Part shown: positions 1,039-41,064 of the stretch, piece after piece
How the letters are laid out: each line of letters begins with the position of its first letter
Numbering within the stretch: position 1 is the stretch's first letter
NCBI GenBank assembly: GCA_964582765.1
Contig: CAZOSW010000004.1
Coordinates: 1 to 54,676, forward strand
Source of the DNA: an uncultured Planctomycetales bacterium
GTDB taxonomy: Bacteria > Omnitrophota > Gorgyraeia > Gygaellales > Profunditerraquicolaceae
DNA: 54,676 bases
Direction of reading: 5' to 3'
Translations under genes and position numbers: made by a program
Notes under the pieces: model-generated
Database searches by the model: none
What the model was told of the DNA's origin: nothing
Seen by the model: only the letters and a program-made list of their open reading frames with translations

Positions 1039-1098
1039 GGAGGATTTATAAGATGGTCGGGCCGCCATCTGATTAAATGATCAGGTGACGGATTTTTT
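1039..1098 (+). promoter_or_regulatory. Candidate translation-coupled attenuator: SD + mini-ORF MVGPPSD + intrinsic terminator
   Basis: GGAGG at 1039-1043, then ATG at 1053 and TAA at 1074-1076. The stem 1062-1073 / 1080-1091 is followed by TTTTTT at 1093-1098. The core GATGGTCGGGCCGCCATCT (1052-1070) recurs exactly at 7697-7715. Confidence 0.5.
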
Positions 1099-1178
1099 AT
1101 TGAAAGTGAAAGAGCGGATTAATTAAAATGATAGAGGTTTTTATTCACTCTAATTGTAAGTATTTGTTCAGGTGATAA

Positions 1179-1457
1179 ATGAAAAAAGTTATTAAAAAGT
1201 GGGGATGGTATAAAGTTTTGGCAAAAGGGAATGGGTTTAAGGTAAAGGTATTATATCTTAAGCCTTTCGCCAAGACAAGCTTACAAAGGCATAAGTTTAG
1301 AAGCGAGACATGGGTGTTTCTTGATAGCCAAGAAGTAAAGATAGTAGGAAGGCATAAATGGCATCGTTTAAGTAACTCCAGTAACAAGGGGTTAAAGCTA
1401 GTAGAGGTGCAAATAGGGATATGCCAGGAAAGAGATATAGAAAGACAAAAGGAATAG
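1179..1457 (+). CDS. Small stand-alone cupin protein (phosphomannose isomerase type II C-terminal-like)
   Basis: WGWYKVL..GFKVKVLYLKP..SLQRHKFRSETWV resembles the cupin beta-barrel core of type II PMI / GDP-mannose pyrophosphorylase C-termini. Confidence 0.55.
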   Translation: MKKVIKKWGWYKVLAKGNGFKVKVLYLKPFAKTSLQRHKFRSETWVFLDSQEVKIVGRHKWHRLSNSSNKGLKLVEVQIGICQERDIERQKE

Positions 1458-1472
1458 CCGGAGATAAATACT

Positions 1473-3752
1473 ATGAGCAGTAATGTTAAGAAGATAGCTT
1501 TTATAGGTAATTATCTCCCCAGGAGATGCGGGATTGCCACCTTTACCTCCGATCTTTGTGAGGCGTTTGCGGCCCTGGATCCGTCCGTTCAATTATTTGT
1601 TATTCCTGTTACAGATACCAAGGAAGGTTATGATTATCCCGAACGCGTGCGTTTTGAGATTAAAGAGCAAGATATATCTACATATAAAGCTGCGGCAGAT
1701 TTCCTCAATCTTAACAATATTGATGTTGTCTGCCTTCAGCATGAATTCGGCATTTTTGGCGGAGACGCCGGCAGCTACATATTGACGTTATTACGGCAAT
1801 TGAAGATGCCGATCGTAATGACTTTGCATACGGTATTACAGCATCCATCCGCACGTCAGAAGCGCGTAATGGATGAATTGCTTGAGCTCTCTGATCACGT
1901 GGTTGTAATGACGCAGAAGGCTATAGATATTCTTCAGGCTGTGCATAAAATAAGCAGTGCAAAGATAGCTTTGATTCCGCATGGAATACCTGATGTTTCA
2001 TTTATCGACCCTAATTTCTATAAAGATCAGTATGGAGTTGAAGGCAAGACTGCGCTTTTGACCTTTGGATTGCTTGCTCCGCATAAAGGGATAGAGGTTG
2101 TTCTGCGCGCTCTTCCTAAGGTTTTAAAAGAATACCCAAACGCGGTATATATCGTTGTCGGAGCCACACATCCTAGTCTGTTAAGGTATGAGGGTGAGAA
2201 ATACAGGCTTTTCTTGCAACGCCTTTGTGATGAGTTAGGGATTTCCAGAAATGTTATTTTTCATAACCGGTTTGTATCTCTGGAAGAACTTAAAGAGTTA
2301 CTTGTACTTGCGGATATTTATATTACTCCATATCTTCAAGAGGCGCAGATAGTTTCCGGAACGTTAGCTTATTCTTTCGGCGTAGGAAACGCGGTCATTT
2401 CGACTCCATATTGGCATGCTGCGGAATTACTTAGCGATGGCAAGGGCCTGCTCGTGCCGTTTAACGATTCGCCAGCCATGGAGCAGGCGATCTTAAGGCT
2501 TATTGGCAATGAAAACGAACGTAACGCGATGCGAAAGAATGCTTATCTTTTTGGCCGTGAAATGATCTGGGGTAAGGTGATATTGAAATACGCGTCTATC
2601 TTCGAAGAATCCAGATTGAAACGCACTCCAATAATGCAAAACAAAATAACAATGCATTCTCTTGAACAAGGGGTTCCTGTATTGCCTGAGATTAAGCTCG
2701 ACCATCTCGTGAGGATGACTGATTCTATCGGAATTTTCCAGCACGCGATGTTTAATGTTCCTAATTTTTCCGAAGGATATTGCACAGACGATAATACGCG
2801 GGCGCTTATTCTGGCCGTATTGCTTGAGAATTTAGGTACGGTGAATCTTCTTGCAATTGATGATCTTGCTAGCCGTTATCTCGGATTTATCAGGCATGCC
2901 TGGGATCCTTCTATCGGACGTTTTAGGAATTTTCTGACCTTTCAGCGGAATTGGATGAAAGAAATACCGAGTGAAGATTCCCATGGAAGAGCGTTATGGG
3001 CGATCGGTATTTGTATCGGGCAATCCAAAAATGAAGGATTCGTGCATATGTCAATTGAGCTTTTTGAAAAGGCTCTTACTTGTTCATCGGCATTTACTTC
3101 TCCGCGCGCCTGGGCTTTCATTTTACTCGGCATGCATGAATACCTACAGCGTTTTCGTGGAGATAGGCTGATTCGTAATTGCCTGCAGGCATTGGCTAGG
3201 CGGCTTTACGATCTTTACAGAGCAAATTTCAGCACAGAGTGGCTGTGGTTTGAATCATCTTTGACATATTGCGGCGCTAAATTGCCTCACGCGCTTTTAT
3301 CAAGCGGATATGACCTTAATAATGAAGAAATGATAAAAGCCGGAATAGAGTCTTTAAACTGGCTTGTAAAAATACAGACTTCAACGCGTGGTCATTTCCA
3401 GCCGGTTGGCTCGGATAACGCGTATCATCGCGGTGGGATAAAACCTGCTTTTGATCAACAGCCGGTAGAAGCCTATTCTACTATTTCAGCTTGCCTTGAG
3501 GCTTATCGCGTCACAAAAGATAAGGCCTGGTATAATGAGGCGGCAAAAGTTTTTCAATGGTTCCTCGGTGGTAATGATTTGGGAATTCCCGTATATGATC
3601 CGGTAACTGGAGGATGTTGCGACGGGCTGCATATTGATAGAGTGAATCGCAATCAAGGCGCTGAATCTACACTCTCATTTCTTCTGTCATTAGCTGAAAT
3701 GACGCGTATGGGAAATATTCTGGAAAGCCTTAAGGAGCCATTAGAGGAATGA
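1473..3752 (+). CDS. Group-1 (GT4) glycosyltransferase fused to a ~370 aa C-terminal helical domain of unknown function
   Basis: The N-terminal ~390 aa carry GT-B group-1 patterns (KIAFIGNYLPRRCGIATF, LLTFGLLAPHKGIEV, SGTLAYSFGVGNAVISTPYWHAAELL). The stop overlaps the next start (ATGA at 3749). Confidence 0.8.
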   Translation: MSSNVKKIAFIGNYLPRRCGIATFTSDLCEAFAALDPSVQLFVIPVTDTKEGYDYPERVRFEIKEQDISTYKAAADFLNLNNIDVVCLQHEFGIFGGDAGSYILTLLRQLKMPIVMTLHTVLQHPSARQKRVMDELLELSDHVVVMTQKAIDILQAVHKISSAKIALIPHGIPDVSFIDPNFYKDQYGVEGKTALLTFGLLAPHKGIEVVLRALPKVLKEYPNAVYIVVGATHPSLLRYEGEKYRLFLQRLCDELGISRNVIFHNRFVSLEELKELLVLADIYITPYLQEAQIVSGTLAYSFGVGNAVISTPYWHAAELLSDGKGLLVPFNDSPAMEQAILRLIGNENERNAMRKNAYLFGREMIWGKVILKYASIFEESRLKRTPIMQNKITMHSLEQGVPVLPEIKLDHLVRMTDSIGIFQHAMFNVPNFSEGYCTDDNTRALILAVLLENLGTVNLLAIDDLASRYLGFIRHAWDPSIGRFRNFLTFQRNWMKEIPSEDSHGRALWAIGICIGQSKNEGFVHMSIELFEKALTCSSAFTSPRAWAFILLGMHEYLQRFRGDRLIRNCLQALARRLYDLYRANFSTEWLWFESSLTYCGAKLPHALLSSGYDLNNEEMIKAGIESLNWLVKIQTSTRGHFQPVGSDNAYHRGGIKPAFDQQPVEAYSTISACLEAYRVTKDKAWYNEAAKVFQWFLGGNDLGIPVYDPVTGGCCDGLHIDRVNRNQGAESTLSFLLSLAEMTRMGNILESLKEPLEE

Positions 3753-5191
3753 TAAAAAATACTGGTATAGCTATTACTCCTGATGACAAGCACGTCATTA
3801 TTCGGCCCTATGTTCCTCATGATCAATCACGGGTTCACAGAATTGCATTACGCGTTATGGCGCTAGAGGAATCTGCCGCTGAAAAAGAGCTCAAGAAAAT
3901 CAGGCGCGATTTTTCGGCGCGGCATCATAATCTTGACAAAATCCTTAAACATCAATTTGAAGCTGTACGCACATACTTGCCTTCCGATCTTAACCCTTCT
4001 GAAACACGCAAACTTCTCATAGGAGCGTGTTTTGTCGGCGAGCGTACATTTGAATCAGCAGCGCTTTTTAATCCTTCTATTGTCGCGCATCCGGATCAGT
4101 CCGGGATTTCTTCTGGCTCCTTACGCGTAATTATTTCTTTGCGCGCAACAAGCGAGGGGCACATATCCACATTAACATTTCGTTCCGCTATCCTAGATAA
4201 AGATGGCTTAATATCGATTGATAAAGTTTCTAATTTAGCTTGTACCGCTGAACCGAAAGCCAACGCGCTTTACGATAAGGTATGTTTCATCGGGAAACTC
4301 TATGAAATGGGGCTAGAGAATGATTGTGCAAAATACATTATAGGCCCGTTACCGGCTGAGTTTACTATTGCGCAGCTGGAGGATAGAATTAATGCCTATA
4401 CTATTGATCATGATCCGATAATTCAAACAGATAAGCTTACCTGTGAAAAGATTCTGTGGCTTGCGCGATGTAATTACGAAGTTACTTTTGATTCGCAATT
4501 TACGCTTTCAGAGCGCGTGCTATTTCCGCTTTCTCCCAGCGAACAGAACGGTATGGAGGACGCGCGTTTTGTTCTTTTTAAAGACGATGACGGAAGCAAA
4601 AAATACTATGCTACTTATACGGCGTATGATGGGAAGGTAATCCTTCCGCAGATAATGGAGACAGAAGATTTTATTCATTTTAAAATGATTACCTTAAACG
4701 GCAAGGCAGCGGTCAACAAAGGAATGGCTTTGTTTCCGCGTAAGATTGGCGGCCGCTATGCGATGATCTCTCGGAATGATAACGAGAGGCTCTTTCTCAT
4801 GTATTCCGACAATATCCATTTCTGGCATGAAGCCGTTCCGATTATGGAGCCTTTGTATTCCTGGGAGTTTGTGCAGATCGGAAATTGCGGCTCTCCCATT
4901 GAGACTGAGCGCGGGTGGCTTCTTTTAACCCATGGCGTTGGTCCGTTGCGTCAATACACGATTGGCGCGGCCCTGCTTGATCGCGATGATCCTTCACGCG
5001 TACTCGGTCGATTGAGCAAACCGCTTATTCATTGGAAGGCTAAGAGCCGTTGTGGGTATGTTCCAAATGTCGTCTATTCATGCGGCGCCTTGGTTTACGG
5101 CGATATGCTTATCATTCCCTATGCGTTATCCGATCAACAGACGACTATCGCGCTAGTATCGTTACGCGAGATCTTAGACAGGTTGTCTTAG
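3749..5191 (+). CDS. GH130-family glycosidase/phosphorylase (PH1107-related) with an N-terminal extension
   Basis: NGMEDARFVLF, YYATYTAYDG and GSPIETERGWLLLTHGVG are typical of the GH130 beta-propeller family. Confidence 0.7.
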   Translation: MIKNTGIAITPDDKHVIIRPYVPHDQSRVHRIALRVMALEESAAEKELKKIRRDFSARHHNLDKILKHQFEAVRTYLPSDLNPSETRKLLIGACFVGERTFESAALFNPSIVAHPDQSGISSGSLRVIISLRATSEGHISTLTFRSAILDKDGLISIDKVSNLACTAEPKANALYDKVCFIGKLYEMGLENDCAKYIIGPLPAEFTIAQLEDRINAYTIDHDPIIQTDKLTCEKILWLARCNYEVTFDSQFTLSERVLFPLSPSEQNGMEDARFVLFKDDDGSKKYYATYTAYDGKVILPQIMETEDFIHFKMITLNGKAAVNKGMALFPRKIGGRYAMISRNDNERLFLMYSDNIHFWHEAVPIMEPLYSWEFVQIGNCGSPIETERGWLLLTHGVGPLRQYTIGAALLDRDDPSRVLGRLSKPLIHWKAKSRCGYVPNVVYSCGALVYGDMLIIPYALSDQQTTIALVSLREILDRLS

Positions 5192-7599: not shown

Positions 7600-7628
7600 T
7601 TGACAATGAGATAAAACCTATTTATTAT
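7600..7628 (+). promoter_or_regulatory. Sigma70-like promoter (TTGACA, 17 nt, TATTAT)
   Basis: TTGACA at 7600-7605 and TATTAT at 7623-7628. Confidence 0.5.
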
Positions 7629-7684
7629 AAGAAAAGAGCGAAGTGAAATAAAATATTCTTGGGTTCAGAAATAATTTTATTTCT

Positions 7685-7754
7685 GAAGGTTGTATTGATG
7701 GTCGGGCCGCCATCTACGAAGGTAGAAGGCGGCTTCTGTTTTTTTAACTCTTAG
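7685..7754 (+). promoter_or_regulatory. Candidate translation-coupled attenuator: mini-ORF MVGPPSTKVEGGFCFFNS spanning an intrinsic terminator
   Basis: SD-like GAAGG at 7685-7689, then ATG at 7698 and TAG at 7752-7754. The terminator is GCCGCC-AU-CUAC-GAAG-GUAG-AA-GGCGGC (7706-7733) followed by UUCUGUUUUUUU, with a U-run at 7739-7745. Confidence 0.55.
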
Positions 7755-7770: not shown

Positions 7771-8769
7771 ATGGATTGGCAGAATGTTCCTAACCCAGAT
7801 GAGATAATTGAGGCAGGTAGGAAGAAATTCGTGGATTTCTCGAAGTGGATTCCTATCGCAGTAATTGTTTTGTTCATCCTGGCTGGTTTGCGGGGTTTAA
7901 TTTATTCGATCGGCCCGGATGAGGTGGGTGTTATTCAGAGGTTTGGTAAGTTCATCGGCTTAAGTTCTCCCGGGTTGCATGCAAAAATACCATTTAGTAT
8001 AGATAAGGTAACGCCGATTAAGGTAGAGAAGGTTTTTAAGGAGGAATACGGGTTTAAGACCATGGTGCCGGGAGTAAGGTCAAAATTCTCTTCGGGTAAT
8101 TATCAGGATGAATCTTTGATGCTTACCGGAGACTTGAATATTCTTGATGTGCGCTGGATAGTGCAGTTTAAAATTAAAGATCCGGTAAAGCTGCTTTTCG
8201 CTACGCGCCACCCCGAGGACAATATACACGATATTTCCGAAGTAGTTATGCGGCGTTTCGTCGGGGATTATTCAGTGGATGAAGTCCTTACTACCAAAAG
8301 GGAAGAGATAGATGATTTGGCGCAGCAGGAGATACAGCGTATACTTGATATGTATGATGTCGGGGTACATATAGTTACGGTGAAACTATTGGATGTTAAC
8401 CCTCCTGAAGCGGTAAAGTCCGCATTTAACGAAGTAAACGAGGCCAAGCAAGAAAAAGAGAAGATGATTAACCAGGCCTGGGAGGCTTATAATAAAGTTA
8501 TTCCCAAGGCCAGAGGGACGGCAGAGAAGACTATCCGTGAATCAGAGGGTTATGCTACGGATAAAATAAACCGCGCCAAGGGCGAATCAGCAAGATTTCT
8601 TGCTACTTTAGAGGAGTATAAAAAAGCTCCGGATATAACCAAAAAGAGGCTCTATTTAGAAACCTTAACACAGGTGCTTCCTAATGCAAAAGAGAAATAC
8701 ATAATTGATTCGCAGCAGAGATCGATTCTGCCTCTTTTGGATATCAATAAAAAAGGAGGGCAGCAGTAA
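7771..8769 (+). CDS. hflK: FtsH protease modulator HflK (SPFH/band-7)
   Basis: N-terminal TM segment followed by an SPFH domain (GPDEVGVIQRFGKF, PGLHAKIPF). It is followed by the hflC partner. AGGAG SD. Confidence 0.9.
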   Translation: MDWQNVPNPDEIIEAGRKKFVDFSKWIPIAVIVLFILAGLRGLIYSIGPDEVGVIQRFGKFIGLSSPGLHAKIPFSIDKVTPIKVEKVFKEEYGFKTMVPGVRSKFSSGNYQDESLMLTGDLNILDVRWIVQFKIKDPVKLLFATRHPEDNIHDISEVVMRRFVGDYSVDEVLTTKREEIDDLAQQEIQRILDMYDVGVHIVTVKLLDVNPPEAVKSAFNEVNEAKQEKEKMINQAWEAYNKVIPKARGTAEKTIRESEGYATDKINRAKGESARFLATLEEYKKAPDITKKRLYLETLTQVLPNAKEKYIIDSQQRSILPLLDINKKGGQQ

Positions 8770-9728
8770 TGAAAGGATTACGTTTAATTATTATAATTTT
8801 TACGATATTATTCGCTATTCTAATTTTATCTTTTGTCATTGGTGCGGTGTATGTAATTGAAGAAGGAAAACAAGTGGTTATTACGCAATTCGGCAAGCCC
8901 GTGGGTAATCCGATTACCTCAGCCGGTATGCATTTCAAGCAGCCATTAATTCAGGAAGCACACTATTTTGAAAAAAGGCTCTTGGATTGGGACGGAGATC
9001 CGAATCAGATACCTACCAAAGATAAGAAATATATCTGGGTTGATACTACTGCCCGCTGGAAGATTATCGATGCCTTAAAATTCCTGCAGTCTGTAGGCAA
9101 TGAAATGAGCGCTCAAGGCAGGCTCGATGATATCATAAATTCCGCAACCAGGGATATAATTACCAGCCATCTTTTAGTTGAAGCGGTGAGGGATTCTAAC
9201 CGTATCCTGGAGTCAAGGGCAGAAGGCGAGGATATGATTGTTACGGATGAGGCGCTGGAGCGCATCGAAGTAGGCAGGAAGATGCTGGAGAGCGCCATTC
9301 TAGAAAAGGCAAAGGTTCTTGCTCCCCAGTACGGCATTGATATTATTGATGTGCGCATCAAACGCGTAAATTACGTAGAAGATGTGCGTAACAAAGTTTA
9401 TGATCGTATGATTGCCGAAAGAAAGCGCGCTGCGGAGAAATATCGTTCCGAAGGCCAGGGGAAATCCGCTGAGATAGAGGGGCAGGTAGCCAAAGAATTA
9501 AAGGCTATCACTTCGGAGGCTTACCGTCAGGCACAGATTATTACCGGTAAGGCGGACGGCGAGGCAATCAATATATATGCTGGTGCATACAGCCAGAATC
9601 CCGATTTTTATTCCTTCATGAAGACGTTAGAAAGCTATGGAGATACCATCGACGCAAAATCTACGGTGATTTTGACAACCGACAGCGACTATTACAAATA
9701 CCTCAAGTCCCTGGAGGCTATGAAATAA
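8769..9728 (+). CDS. hflC: FtsH protease modulator HflC (SPFH/band-7)
   Basis: The start overlaps the hflK stop by 1 nt (TAATG). SPFH domain (VITQFGKPVG, AGMHFKQPLIQ). Confidence 0.9.
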   Translation: MKGLRLIIIIFTILFAILILSFVIGAVYVIEEGKQVVITQFGKPVGNPITSAGMHFKQPLIQEAHYFEKRLLDWDGDPNQIPTKDKKYIWVDTTARWKIIDALKFLQSVGNEMSAQGRLDDIINSATRDIITSHLLVEAVRDSNRILESRAEGEDMIVTDEALERIEVGRKMLESAILEKAKVLAPQYGIDIIDVRIKRVNYVEDVRNKVYDRMIAERKRAAEKYRSEGQGKSAEIEGQVAKELKAITSEAYRQAQIITGKADGEAINIYAGAYSQNPDFYSFMKTLESYGDTIDAKSTVILTTDSDYYKYLKSLEAMK

Positions 9729-10152: not shown

Positions 10153-11181
10153 ATGAACAGTTATCTTTTTTCGGGTATTTTAATGGTTTCTAGTTTTACT
10201 GCCGGGTGGATACTTTATTTTATTGTTTCGCTTTTACTTAAACGGCGGAATGGGTTTTTCTCTAAAGGGCTTAATGTCGATTTAAGGGTTTTAAAAAGTC
10301 CGTTACGATTCCTATTGCCTATTTTGTGTGTTTCGGGGATTATTCCTTTATTAAGAGTGCCGAGAAATGAGCGTTTATTTTTAGGCGACTTTATTCACAT
10401 TTTGCTTATTGCTTTGTTTGGTTGGGTTGGGGTAAAGATTGTTTACATCTTACGCGATGCTCTCCTAAGCCGTTATGATATTAATACTCGGGATAATGTG
10501 CATGCCCGTAGCATGCATACACAAATGCGCGTGATCACAAATATTATGGTTGTTGTTATAGCCTTGTTGACTATTTCCATTATATTGATGAGTTTTTCAC
10601 AGGTCAGGCATATCGGGGTAAGCCTATTGGCTTCGGCAGGAATTTTGGGAATAGTCATAGGTTTTGCTGCGCAAAAAACATTAGGGAATTTTATTGCCGG
10701 TATTCAGATAGCCTTTGCTCAGCCAATTCGGCTGGATGATGTGGTTATTATTGAAGGTGAATGGGGGTGGATTGAGGAAATTACCCTTACTTTTGTAGTT
10801 GTGCGTATCTGGGACCTAAGGCGCCTGGTTGTACCGATATCATATTTTCTCGAAAAACCATTTCAGAATTGGACGCGGACTTCGGCAGATTTGCTGGGGA
10901 CTGTTTTTATATATACCGATTACACCATATCCGTCAAAGATGTCCGTAATGAATTAACGCGTATCCTGGAAAATAGCTCAAAGTGGGATAAGAAGGTCAA
11001 TGTACTGCAAGTTACCAATGCAACCGACAAAACAGTTGAACTACGGGCGTTGATGAGCGCAGGGGATTCTCCCACCATGTGGGACTTGCGTTGTGAGGTC
11101 AGGGAAAAGCTCCTAGGGTTTTTACAACAACAATTTCCGGAAAGTTTGCCGCGGACTCGCATTGAAATGAATAAAAAGTAA
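10153..11181 (+). CDS. Mechanosensitive ion channel family protein (MscS-like)
   Basis: TM segments followed by GNFIAGIQIAFAQPIRLDDVVIIEGEWGWIEEITLTFVVVRIWDLRRLVVP, the MscS pore-helix/beta-domain signature. Confidence 0.85.
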   Translation: MNSYLFSGILMVSSFTAGWILYFIVSLLLKRRNGFFSKGLNVDLRVLKSPLRFLLPILCVSGIIPLLRVPRNERLFLGDFIHILLIALFGWVGVKIVYILRDALLSRYDINTRDNVHARSMHTQMRVITNIMVVVIALLTISIILMSFSQVRHIGVSLLASAGILGIVIGFAAQKTLGNFIAGIQIAFAQPIRLDDVVIIEGEWGWIEEITLTFVVVRIWDLRRLVVPISYFLEKPFQNWTRTSADLLGTVFIYTDYTISVKDVRNELTRILENSSKWDKKVNVLQVTNATDKTVELRALMSAGDSPTMWDLRCEVREKLLGFLQQQFPESLPRTRIEMNKK

Positions 11182-39502: not shown

Positions 39503-39531
39503 TTGACAAGCCTGGTTAAGCGGGGTATAAT
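39503..39531 (+). promoter_or_regulatory. Consensus sigma70 promoter (TTGACA, 17 nt, TATAAT)
   Basis: TTGACA at 39503-39508 and TATAAT at 39526-39531. Confidence 0.65.
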
Positions 39532-39543
39532 AATTCAAAGATT

Positions 39544-39598
39544 AGGAGCTTTAATGCCGCCAAGGACAACAACTAACCTTTGCGGTTTTTTATTATAA
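39544..39598 (+). promoter_or_regulatory. Candidate translation-coupled attenuator: mini-ORF MPPRTTTNLCGFLL spanning an intrinsic terminator
   Basis: AGGAG at 39544-39548, 5 nt, ATG at 39554, TAA at 39596-39598. The stem is CCGCCAAGG (39557-39565) / CCTTTGCGG (39577-39585) with one mismatch, followed by TTTTTT at 39586-39591. Confidence 0.55.
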
Positions 39599-39759
39599 GA
39601 GAGGTGAGGCATCAAAAAGATAAAGACGTCAGGTAAGGGAAGGAAATGTAAGTACTTACATTGTAAGCATATTTTGAGTATTTATAATCATGAGTCTTAT
39701 TGCCATGTGCATCTTGGTCTTTTAGCTAATAGCGAAAAAACTAAGGCGGTTAAAGCGTT

Positions 39760-41064
39760 ATGACAAATAAAGCGGCTATAAATAATATCACAGAAGCACC
39801 TGCTAATTTTTATGGTTTAGGTATTGCTCCTAAGATCCTGGATATCTTGGAACGCATGAAATTTAAGGTTCCGACTCCTGTCCAGTTAAAGGCAATTCCT
39901 CTTGCCCTTGAAGGAAAAGATATCATAGGTATTGCTCAGACGGGGACTGGAAAGACTCATTCTTTTGCTATTCCTATGGTACAGCGGCTGGTGCAGAAAA
40001 AAGGTATAGGACTAGTGCTTGCGCCGACAAGGGAACTAGCTATTCAGATTGATGAAGCTTTTCAGGAGATTGCCCGCGCTTTTAGTATGAGGACTGCTTG
40101 TTTAATCGGCGGAGCACCTATGCCTCCTCAGGTTCAGGCTTTGCGCAGGGAACCGCATATAGTTATTGCAACCCCGGGGAGATTAATTGACCATATGTCG
40201 CAGTGGAATTTTCTGCCGGATAGCGTAATAATGCTGGTGCTTGATGAGGCGGATCGAATGTTGGATATGGGTTTTGCGCCGCAAATAGAGAAAATATTGC
40301 GTTTTCTCCCTCGCGAAAGGCAAACCATGTTATTTTCGGCGACTATGCCAAAAGAAATTATGAATATAGCTGCTAAATATATGAAATTACCCCTGAGTGT
40401 TGAAATAGCTCCTTCGGGAACTACTGTTGAGCTTGTTACTCAAGAATTATTTATCGTGAAAAAAGAGGCAAAAACACAACTGTTAAGGAAGCTGCTTGGC
40501 CAATATCACGGTACAGTTTTATTATTTTCACGCACCAAGCATAATGCTAAAAAAATTGTTAGATCAATCAGGGATATGGGGTACTCTGCTTCAGAGATTC
40601 ATTCTAATCGATCTTTGGTTCAGCGTAGAGATGCATTAGAAGGTTTTAAATCCGGGAAATACAGGGTATTAGTCGCAACGGATATTGCATCGCGCGGTAT
40701 TGATGTTACCGGAATTGAATTGGTGCTTAATTATGATTTGCCTGAGGATGCGGAAAATTACGTGCATCGTATCGGCCGCACTGCCCGGGCCGGGCACAAG
40801 GGCCATGCTATTTCTTTTGCCACTCCTGATCAGGGCAATGATGTGCGCGATATTGAAAAACTTATTAAAGCCACTCTGCCTGTATCAAAACATGCGGAGC
40901 TTACCCTGGATAAATTCGGTGAACCTAGCCACCGCCTTGGCCGAAGCCGTGCATATCAATCTAGCCATGGACAGCCAAGAGGAGGCCAGTCAAACTATGG
41001 GCAGCCGAGGCATGCCCAGCCGAAGAAACCTTTTAAATACCCTAAGCCAAAATTCTACCGTTAA
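39760..41064 (+). CDS. DEAD-box ATP-dependent RNA helicase (RhlE/CsdA-like)
   Basis: Q motif, AQTGTGKT, DEAD, SAT and HRIGRTARAG. Basic G/Q/P-rich C-terminal tail. Confidence 0.93.
   Translation: MTNKAAINNITEAPANFYGLGIAPKILDILERMKFKVPTPVQLKAIPLALEGKDIIGIAQTGTGKTHSFAIPMVQRLVQKKGIGLVLAPTRELAIQIDEAFQEIARAFSMRTACLIGGAPMPPQVQALRREPHIVIATPGRLIDHMSQWNFLPDSVIMLVLDEADRMLDMGFAPQIEKILRFLPRERQTMLFSATMPKEIMNIAAKYMKLPLSVEIAPSGTTVELVTQELFIVKKEAKTQLLRKLLGQYHGTVLLFSRTKHNAKKIVRSIRDMGYSASEIHSNRSLVQRRDALEGFKSGKYRVLVATDIASRGIDVTGIELVLNYDLPEDAENYVHRIGRTARAGHKGHAISFATPDQGNDVRDIEKLIKATLPVSKHAELTLDKFGEPSHRLGRSRAYQSSHGQPRGGQSNYGQPRHAQPKKPFKYPKPKFYR

Follow-up and report, generated by a model that had tools for sequence, protein, structure and literature searches.

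Two putative nhaA-I class cation riboswitches upstream of a cupin/GT4/GH130 operon and of hflKC in an Omnitrophota genome

The leader RNA at positions 1013–1070 of the window (the whole 54,676-nucleotide stretch of Omnitrophota DNA that was analysed) is very probably one of two riboswitches of the nhaA-I class (RF03057), a cation ON switch, with ligand binding and termination predicted from its sequence and its relatives. An initial annotation had described the region as a new attenuator that senses translation and that matches no riboswitch class. The latter statement was wrong, as both copies score above the Rfam gathering score for nhaA-I. The result is mainly of corrective value – the supposed attenuator belongs to a known riboswitch class and is picked up by a routine Rfam scan.

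A 2017 description of the nhaA-I motif listed it as a candidate RNA related to sodium. Validation as the Li+-I riboswitch followed in 2022, when the rare variants with terminators, which respond to Na+, received the name Na+-II (White et al. 2022, PMC9646797). The class, the fold and the switching design are already published, and the standard Rfam scan finds both window copies. The Omnitrophota host, the recurrent associations with hflKC and with GT4/GH130 genes, and the mixture of subclass features are modestly new.

The two aptamers and their relatives

A scan of the whole window against Rfam at curated thresholds gave exactly two matches, both to RF03057. When the scan was extended to E ≤ 1, only two noise matches to other RNA families were added (a miRNA and IsrM), and there was no match to DUF1646 (Na+-I). 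Copy 1 (1013–1070, + strand) reaches 38.9 bits, where the gathering score is 37, and copy 2 (7661–7715, + strand) reaches 53.7 bits, with E = 7e-8. In the RF03057 alignment, copy 1 consists of a 5' tail, CGUU (1013–1016), where the consensus is GGGU; P1 (1017–1024 paired with 1033–1040); the conserved AGG (1041–1043); a linker (1044–1050); and P2 (1051–1057 paired with 1064–1070), with the loop CGGGCC at 1058–1063. The corresponding parts of copy 2 are GGGU (7661–7664), P1 (7665–7672 paired with 7679–7686), AGG (7687–7689), and P2 (7696–7702 paired with 7709–7715), with the loop CGGGCC at 7703–7708. The near-invariant P2 core, GGUCGGGCCGCC, is exact in both.

Both aptamers are in the 5' leader of a gene on the same strand, which starts 108 nt (copy 1) or 55 nt (copy 2) past the aptamer end, and promoter-like sites are found 20–35 nt upstream. 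The site ahead of copy 1 (964–991, + strand) had been proposed as a promoter in the initial annotation and was recovered by the promoter scan with a score of 10/12; it has TTGTGA, a 16-nt spacer and TATAAT with an extended −10 TG. This sequence is nearly unchanged at the orthologous locus L204. The site ahead of copy 2 (7600–7628, + strand) has TTGACA, a 17-nt spacer and TATTAT, and scores 11/12.

Direct reading of the sequence places GGAGG at 1039–1043, the frame ATG GTC GGG CCG CCA TCT GAT TAA at 1053–1076, and the 19-mer GATGGTCGGGCCGCCATCT at 1052–1070 and again, exact, at 7697–7715, all as annotated earlier. The 19-mer occurs exactly twice, and a search of the whole window with up to three mismatches found no further copies. 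Its chance expectation is 0.02 matches, and none of 100 dinucleotide shuffles contained two or more copies. On the predicted fold, the 19-mer is the P2 hairpin of the aptamer, and GGAGG is the end of the P1 3' arm together with the conserved AGG.

An exact-pattern scan of species-representative genomes gave 120 loci, about 84 of them with full aptamer context. The pattern fixed the P2 sequence and is unusable for judging conservation of P2 or of the AUG within it; the replacement sample consisted of 80 metagenomic loci anchored solely on homologs of the window HflK. Upstream sequence was usable at 76 of these loci, and in 49 of the 76 the conserved P2 core CGGGCCGC lies no more than 200 nt upstream of hflK. 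A covariance model, R1, was built from an alignment of 54 of the HflK-anchored copies, with window copy 1 in the seed. Run on the window with filters off, R1 found the two copies and no others (51 bits for copy 1, a seed member, and 70.3 bits for copy 2); run on the HflK-anchored loci it gave 58 matches, 56 of them non-redundant. Further and orthologous copies, on whose existence the initial annotation had made its reading depend, were thus found: true orthologs of copy 1 precede the cupin/GT4/GH130 operon at L204, L208 and L209, in differing neighbourhoods, and copy 1 orthologs outside the R1 seed score 52.7–64.5 bits.

The P1 helix covaries in the 54-copy alignment. Between 95.7 and 97% of P1 cells are paired, vs. 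about 50% when the partner columns are slid. The pair 7–33 is UA in 36 copies and CG in 17, 8–32 is CG in 40 and UA in 9, 9–31 is AU in 34 and GC in 16, and 11–29 is GC in 23 and AU in 22. Six of the eight P1 pairs have changes on both sides, while the AGG is invariant. The earlier claim of a real, repeated structured RNA is borne out.

Aptamers of nhaA-I type with full context in the pattern scan (L001–L120) come from Omnitrophota, Acidobacteriota, Planctomycetota, Verrucomicrobiota, Elusimicrobiota, Nitrospirae, WOR-3, Aminicenantes and other metagenome-assembled genomes (MAGs), a wider range of phyla than the Proteobacteria named in the 2022 paper (PMC9646797). That paper reported terminator-type variants in Deltaproteobacteria only (PMC9646797); terminator-type nhaA-I riboswitches are found well outside this group. 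Several genomes (L063, L077, L132, L187) have two copies within 0.5–2.3 kb, each with its own downstream gene, an arrangement comparable to the window copies at 1013 and 7661. Matches of the pattern scan with C at position 54 were discarded as candidates, as 30 of the 33 lacked aptamer context and were mostly chance occurrences within GC-rich coding regions.

Predicted terminators and the MVGPPSD reading frame

Each copy is followed by an intrinsic terminator that serves as the putative expression platform. The terminator of copy 1 (1062–1098, + strand), present as first annotated and listed by the terminator scan, has a stem of 1062–1073 with 1080–1091 in which 11 of 12 positions are paired (one C/A mismatch, one G-U), followed by A and then TTTTTT at 1093–1098. 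Its 5' arm reuses the P2 loop and the P2 3' arm. The competing hairpin AGAUGG/CCAUCU that had also been pointed out is P2 itself, whose 3' half is reused by the terminator. The terminator of copy 2 (7706–7745, + strand) has a stem at 7706–7733, GCCGCC.AUCUAC...GUAGA.GGCGGC, with −21 kcal/mol, followed by UUCUGUUUUUUU; the 5-nt spacer ahead of its main U-run is a point against the reading as a switch. The earlier observation that stem partners change between the copies while pairing is kept holds in both sequence and folding.

In folding calculations the terminator is the minimum-energy state of both copies, favoured over the fold with P2 enforced by 5–10 kcal/mol (−29.2 vs. −24.4 kcal/mol in copy 1 and −34.1 vs. 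−24.3 kcal/mol in copy 2). A hairpin of −10 kcal/mol or lower with GCCGCCAUC as its 5' arm, followed by a T-run, is present in 48 of the 56 related copies. Those copy 1 orthologs that have terminators differ in stem sequence, with pairing kept.

By analogy with characterised relatives, a cation-triggered ON switch that acts by antitermination is the best-supported reading of these sequences. Each copy would be transcribed from its own promoter and would fold into a two-hairpin aptamer with P1, an AGG-containing linker, and P2 with the invariant loop UCGGGCCG. The P2 3' half, GCCGCCAUCU, would double as the terminator 5' arm, and since this half and the loop are shared, aptamer and terminator should be mutually exclusive. 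Without ligand, the terminator, as the more stable fold, would stop transcription at the U-run. With the cation bound, P2 would be held closed and the terminator blocked, and RNA polymerase would read on, from copy 1 into the cupin/GT4/GH130 operon and from copy 2 into hflK-hflC. The use of the P2 3' half as terminator 5' arm is a published ON-switch design, found in the D. propionicus template in the supplement of the 2022 paper (PMC9646797). In single-round transcription of this terminator-type RNA with RNA polymerase alone, Na+ raises the amount of full-length product (PMC9646797). The P2-terminator competition of the Na+-I riboswitch follows the same logic. What stands of the attenuator first proposed to gate the cupin/GT4/GH130 operon is the competition between P2 and terminator and the gating of the operon; the sensing of translation does not.

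According to the translation-based reading, the mini-ORF MVGPPSD (1053–1076, + strand) is translated, EF-P-dependent pausing at the Pro-Pro codons covers the terminator 5' arm, and read-through reports translation status. The Pro-Pro codons do fall within that arm, a start codon is present at the P2 position in all 56 related copies (ATG in 50, GTG in 6), and an AGG-containing purine run lies 7–12 nt upstream of the AUG. All of the nucleotides of GGAGG, the AUG and Pro-Pro are, however, conserved aptamer positions, and the P2 sequence dictates codons 1–6. Within P2, the A of the AUG has a U as its partner, and some relatives have G in place of the A (AU 48, GU 5, GC 1), which explains the division between ATG and GTG. 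Those of the SD-like bases that belong to P1 are paired in both calculated folds and covary with the P1 5' arm.

Nor does the frame behave as a gene. Counted from the P2 AUG, the ORFs of the 56 related copies have between 6 and 359 codons and stop anywhere from −22 to +1034 nt relative to the U-run. The first stop comes after a median of 13, 13 and 11 codons in the three frames, with the ORF frame no different from the others. In the same 56 protein-anchored copies and four copy 1 orthologs, there was no peptide conservation past MVGPPS, and no conserved ORF length, stop position or frame bias was found; the ortholog peptides are MVGPPSD, MVGPPSCI, MVGPPSD and one peptide of 30 residues. All four experimentally validated family members lack the AUG – their P2 5' arms are GUUGG, GCUGG, GCAGG and GUUAG, vs. 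GAUGG here (PMC9646797). The D. propionicus RNA (GCC GGG CCG CUA) also lacks Pro-Pro, and still switches in ribosome-free transcription (PMC9646797). With an unconserved ORF, an AUG that covaries with its partner, and an AUG-less member that switches without ribosomes, the proposed sensing of translation or of Pro-Pro finds no support and is very improbable. MVGPPSD was judged not to be a functional gene; its AUG, its Pro-Pro codons and the SD-like GGAGG ahead of it are best read as by-products of conserved aptamer nucleotides.

Attenuators of the mgtL/mgtP type have a short ORF with proline codons that coincides with alternative hairpins ahead of a terminator. The window copy has the same layout, but the likeness is superficial: its ORF is conserved solely at nucleotides fixed by RNA structure, and an nhaA-I family member without the ORF works without ribosomes. 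At two of the HflK-anchored loci, L195 and L167, the frame from the P2 AUG runs for 357–359 codons and in frame into hflK, most likely by accident.

Ligand, subclass and the divergent base of copy 1

The window elements resemble three known riboswitch classes to different degrees. They share with Na+-II, represented by the D. propionicus 'hypo' RNA (PMC9646797), a two-hairpin aptamer with the loop CGGGCCG, a P1 base of the type GGGU-YC...GR-AGG, a terminator 5' arm formed by the P2 3' half, and controlled genes other than nhaA. They differ from it in having U54, where the sole validated Na+-II RNA has C54; in the P2 stem, which is GAUGG/CCAUC in the window and UUAG/CUAA in D. propionicus; in the host, an omnitrophote rather than a deltaproteobacterium; and in the genes that follow, which are hflKC and a GT4/GH130 operon in place of 'hypothetical' genes. 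As in Li+-I (RF03057), they pass the family covariance model and have its invariant nucleotides, including U54; unlike Li+-I, they have a Y-R closing pair of P1, terminators and osmotic-stress genes. In the validated Li+-I RNAs the P1 base is GGGUG(C/U)...(G/A)CAGG; their presumed site of action is the ribosome-binding site, and the gene that follows is mostly nhaA (PMC9646797). Na+-I (the DUF1646 motif) has a similar two-hairpin layout and P2-terminator competition and is likewise an ON switch for sodium and osmotic-stress genes, but its conserved nucleotides are different, the P2 loop of the C. acetobutylicum kefB RNA being UGGGGUGG.

The two types of P1 base differ in their platforms and in the genes that follow. 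In the pattern-scan set, 31 of the 34 copies with GGGUGC...GCAGG lack a terminator, while a terminator is present in 29 of the 46 copies with GGGUYC...GRAGG. NhaA is encoded by the first gene after 8 of 25 non-terminator GGGUGC...GCAGG copies. After 32 terminator-type and other non-A-type copies, the first gene encodes MscS (6), Band_7 (5), GT20/otsA (3), OmpA (3), Rnf/Nqr (2), a Na/Ca exchanger (2), and in no case NhaA. Environmental tandem copies with terminators and osmotic-stress genes were noted in the 2022 paper, with specificity unassigned (PMC9646797).

The M4 oligonucleotide in the supplement of the 2022 paper places position 54 between GG and CGGGCC (PMC9646797). The Na+ sensor has C there and most family members have U; when its C54 is mutated to U, the Na+ sensor acquires responses to Li+ and NH4+ and keeps that to Na+ (PMC9646797). 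U54 is found in both window copies and in 55 of the 56 relatives. The P1 closing pair of the window copies is Y-R, as in the Na+ sensor; it is G-C in three validated Li+ sensors. Going by these nucleotides and by context, the window elements mix a Na+-II-like P1 base, terminator and gene set with a Li+-type U54.

One relative, L177 (1310–1362), has C54, the Na+-II-type base, ahead of hflK, and the near-identical L171, L172 and L179 have U54. L177 and its relatives are a natural pair, and the window copies and their relatives supply natural U54 variants, for testing Li+ vs. Na+ specificity.

With the P1 base, the terminator platform and the osmotic-stress genes all resembling Na+-II, context makes Na+ or a general salt load the most likely ligand, at slightly better than even odds. 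A Li+ or broad response is possible because position 54 is U, as in the Li+ sensors. That the copies belong to the same class and are ordinary Li+-I riboswitches with Li+ as ligand is unlikely, though the least unlikely of the specific alternatives. It would fit U54 in both copies and 55 of 56 relatives, and the published link between U54 and Li+ responsiveness, with the Li+ and NH4+ response gained by C54U (PMC9646797). The same mutant retains its response to Na+ (PMC9646797), however, and the Y-R closing pair, the absence of nhaA from the 32 downstream genes, where osmotic-stress genes are found instead, and the C54 of L177 among near-identical U54 relatives with the same downstream gene all speak against it. 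The ligand may also be neither, and the response broad or of another kind.

A further proposal, less likely than not, is put forward tentatively: copies with U54, a Y-R P1 closing pair and a terminator could form a widespread, uncharacterised nhaA-I subclass that responds to Na+ or total monovalent-cation load and controls an osmotic-stress regulon of mscS, hflKC, otsA and a GT4/GH130 mannoside pathway. Copies with this combination occur in Omnitrophota, Elusimicrobiota, Planctomycetota, Nitrospirota and other phyla. If the proposal were true, position 54 would not be the specificity switch, and HflK/C and the very widely conserved GT4/GH130 pair would be tied to salt adaptation.

Copy 1 has one divergent feature. 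Its positions 1013–1016 are CGUU, while every other copy examined (more than 55) has NGGU there; the L204 ortholog has UGGU, and copy 2 has the consensus GGGU before P1. The low Rfam score of copy 1 (38.9 vs. 37) results from this replacement, and the change of G to U at an otherwise invariant G may lead to poor ligand binding. It could then be supposed that copy 1 is a decaying, non-binding aptamer with a constitutive or leaky terminator, and that the operon relies on the promoter-like site at 1100–1129. Such decay is improbable, less likely than Li+ as the ligand. Copy 1 is the sole one among more than 55 with U at the invariant G, its Rfam score is the lowest and just over the threshold, the element is wholly lost in close relatives, and the promoter-like site lies directly past its terminator. 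Against this, copy 1 retains an intact P1, AGG, P2, loop and terminator, and conservation of its promoter extends to L204; no published test of the role of the 5' GGG in the aptamer was found, and promoter-like matches such as that at 1100–1129 are no commoner in this AT-rich region than in shuffled sequence.

A conserved stretch, ATTGAAAG[G/T][G/A]AAAGAG, is found 3' of the copy 1 terminator in the window (1099–1130), at L204 (2667–2685) and at L209. In the window it overlaps the promoter-like site at 1100–1129, and it may provide a second promoter, bypassing the switch.

Controlled genes and the third locus

Operon 1 (1179–5191, + strand) was identified by Pfam, NCBIfam and PDB sequence matches. 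It encodes a cupin of the mannose-6-phosphate isomerase C-terminal type (1179–1457), a GT4 glycosyltransferase of 759 aa (1473–3752), and a GH130 protein closest to beta-1,2-mannoside phosphorylases (3749–5191). Sequence matching gave only generic GT4 and beta-1,2-mannoside phosphorylase matches for its product, with no pathway assignable; an osmolyte or beta-mannoside pathway is a candidate role for the GT4/GH130 pair. Operon 2 (+ strand) consists of hflK (7771–8769; TIGR01933, 286 bits, cut-off 159) and hflC (8769–9728; TIGR01932, 264 bits, cut-off 134), and a gene for an MscS-like channel (10153–11181) follows hflC. The two NCBIfam matches for hflK and hflC are of equivalog level. HflK and HflC are SPFH/Band 7 proteins that modulate the FtsH protease.

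The riboswitch is not a fixed part of the GT4/GH130 operon. At L211 it is directly ahead of the GT4 gene in yet another neighbourhood. It is absent ahead of the operon in L201–L203, which have the closest GT4 relatives and an NMO-cupin gap of 34 nt; it is absent at the GT4 operon of L206, and none was found upstream of the GT4 gene of the single Kiritimatiellae relative examined. The absence from L201–L203 indicates that the element is dispensable for the operon. In Omnitrophota relatives the GT4/GH130 genes adjoin hflKC, mscS, a ClC channel gene and otsA.

The set of genes downstream of the riboswitches in Omnitrophota – hflK-hflC, mscS, otsA and cupin/GT4/GH130 – looks like a salt or osmotic-stress regulon. 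The published association table contains glycosyl transferase (5), otsA (16) and mscS (3), with no HflK/Band 7 entry (PMC9646797). The associations described here offer testable functional hints for HflK/C and for a GT4/phosphorylase pair that is found across phyla. At L147, L152 and L185 the riboswitch is further upstream and hflK is directly preceded by what looks like the 3' end of a gene, pointing to an operon that includes hflKC.

The closest named homologs of the GT4 protein (79–88% identity) are from Candidatus Omnitrophica/Omnitrophota MAGs. In ENA, the window matches contig k141_235047 of assembly ERZ27248937. Named homologs of the GT4 protein at 66–69% identity come from Kiritimatiellae, Bacteroidota, Chlorobiaceae and Thermoplasmata archaea, and the 759-aa GT4 and its GH130 partner are unusually conserved (window, L201–L211).

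A third locus, 39544–39598, had been placed in the same family. It has no Rfam match at E ≤ 1 and no R1 match at E ≤ 10 with filters off, and was rejected as an nhaA-I RNA; it has only GCCGCCA in common with the riboswitches. Its hairpin is weak (−11.2 kcal/mol, z = −1.3) and is omitted by the terminator scan. The region 39503–39600 has a perfect sigma-70 consensus promoter (12/12, 39503–39531), AGGAG, a 14-codon ORF, MPPRTTTNLCGFLL, and the weak hairpin with U6. It is 160 nt ahead of a DEAD-box RNA helicase gene (39760–41064), with a second promoter-like site nearby at 39661–39688. The locus is separate from the riboswitch and could encode a short leader transcript, act as an attenuator or give rise to a small RNA.
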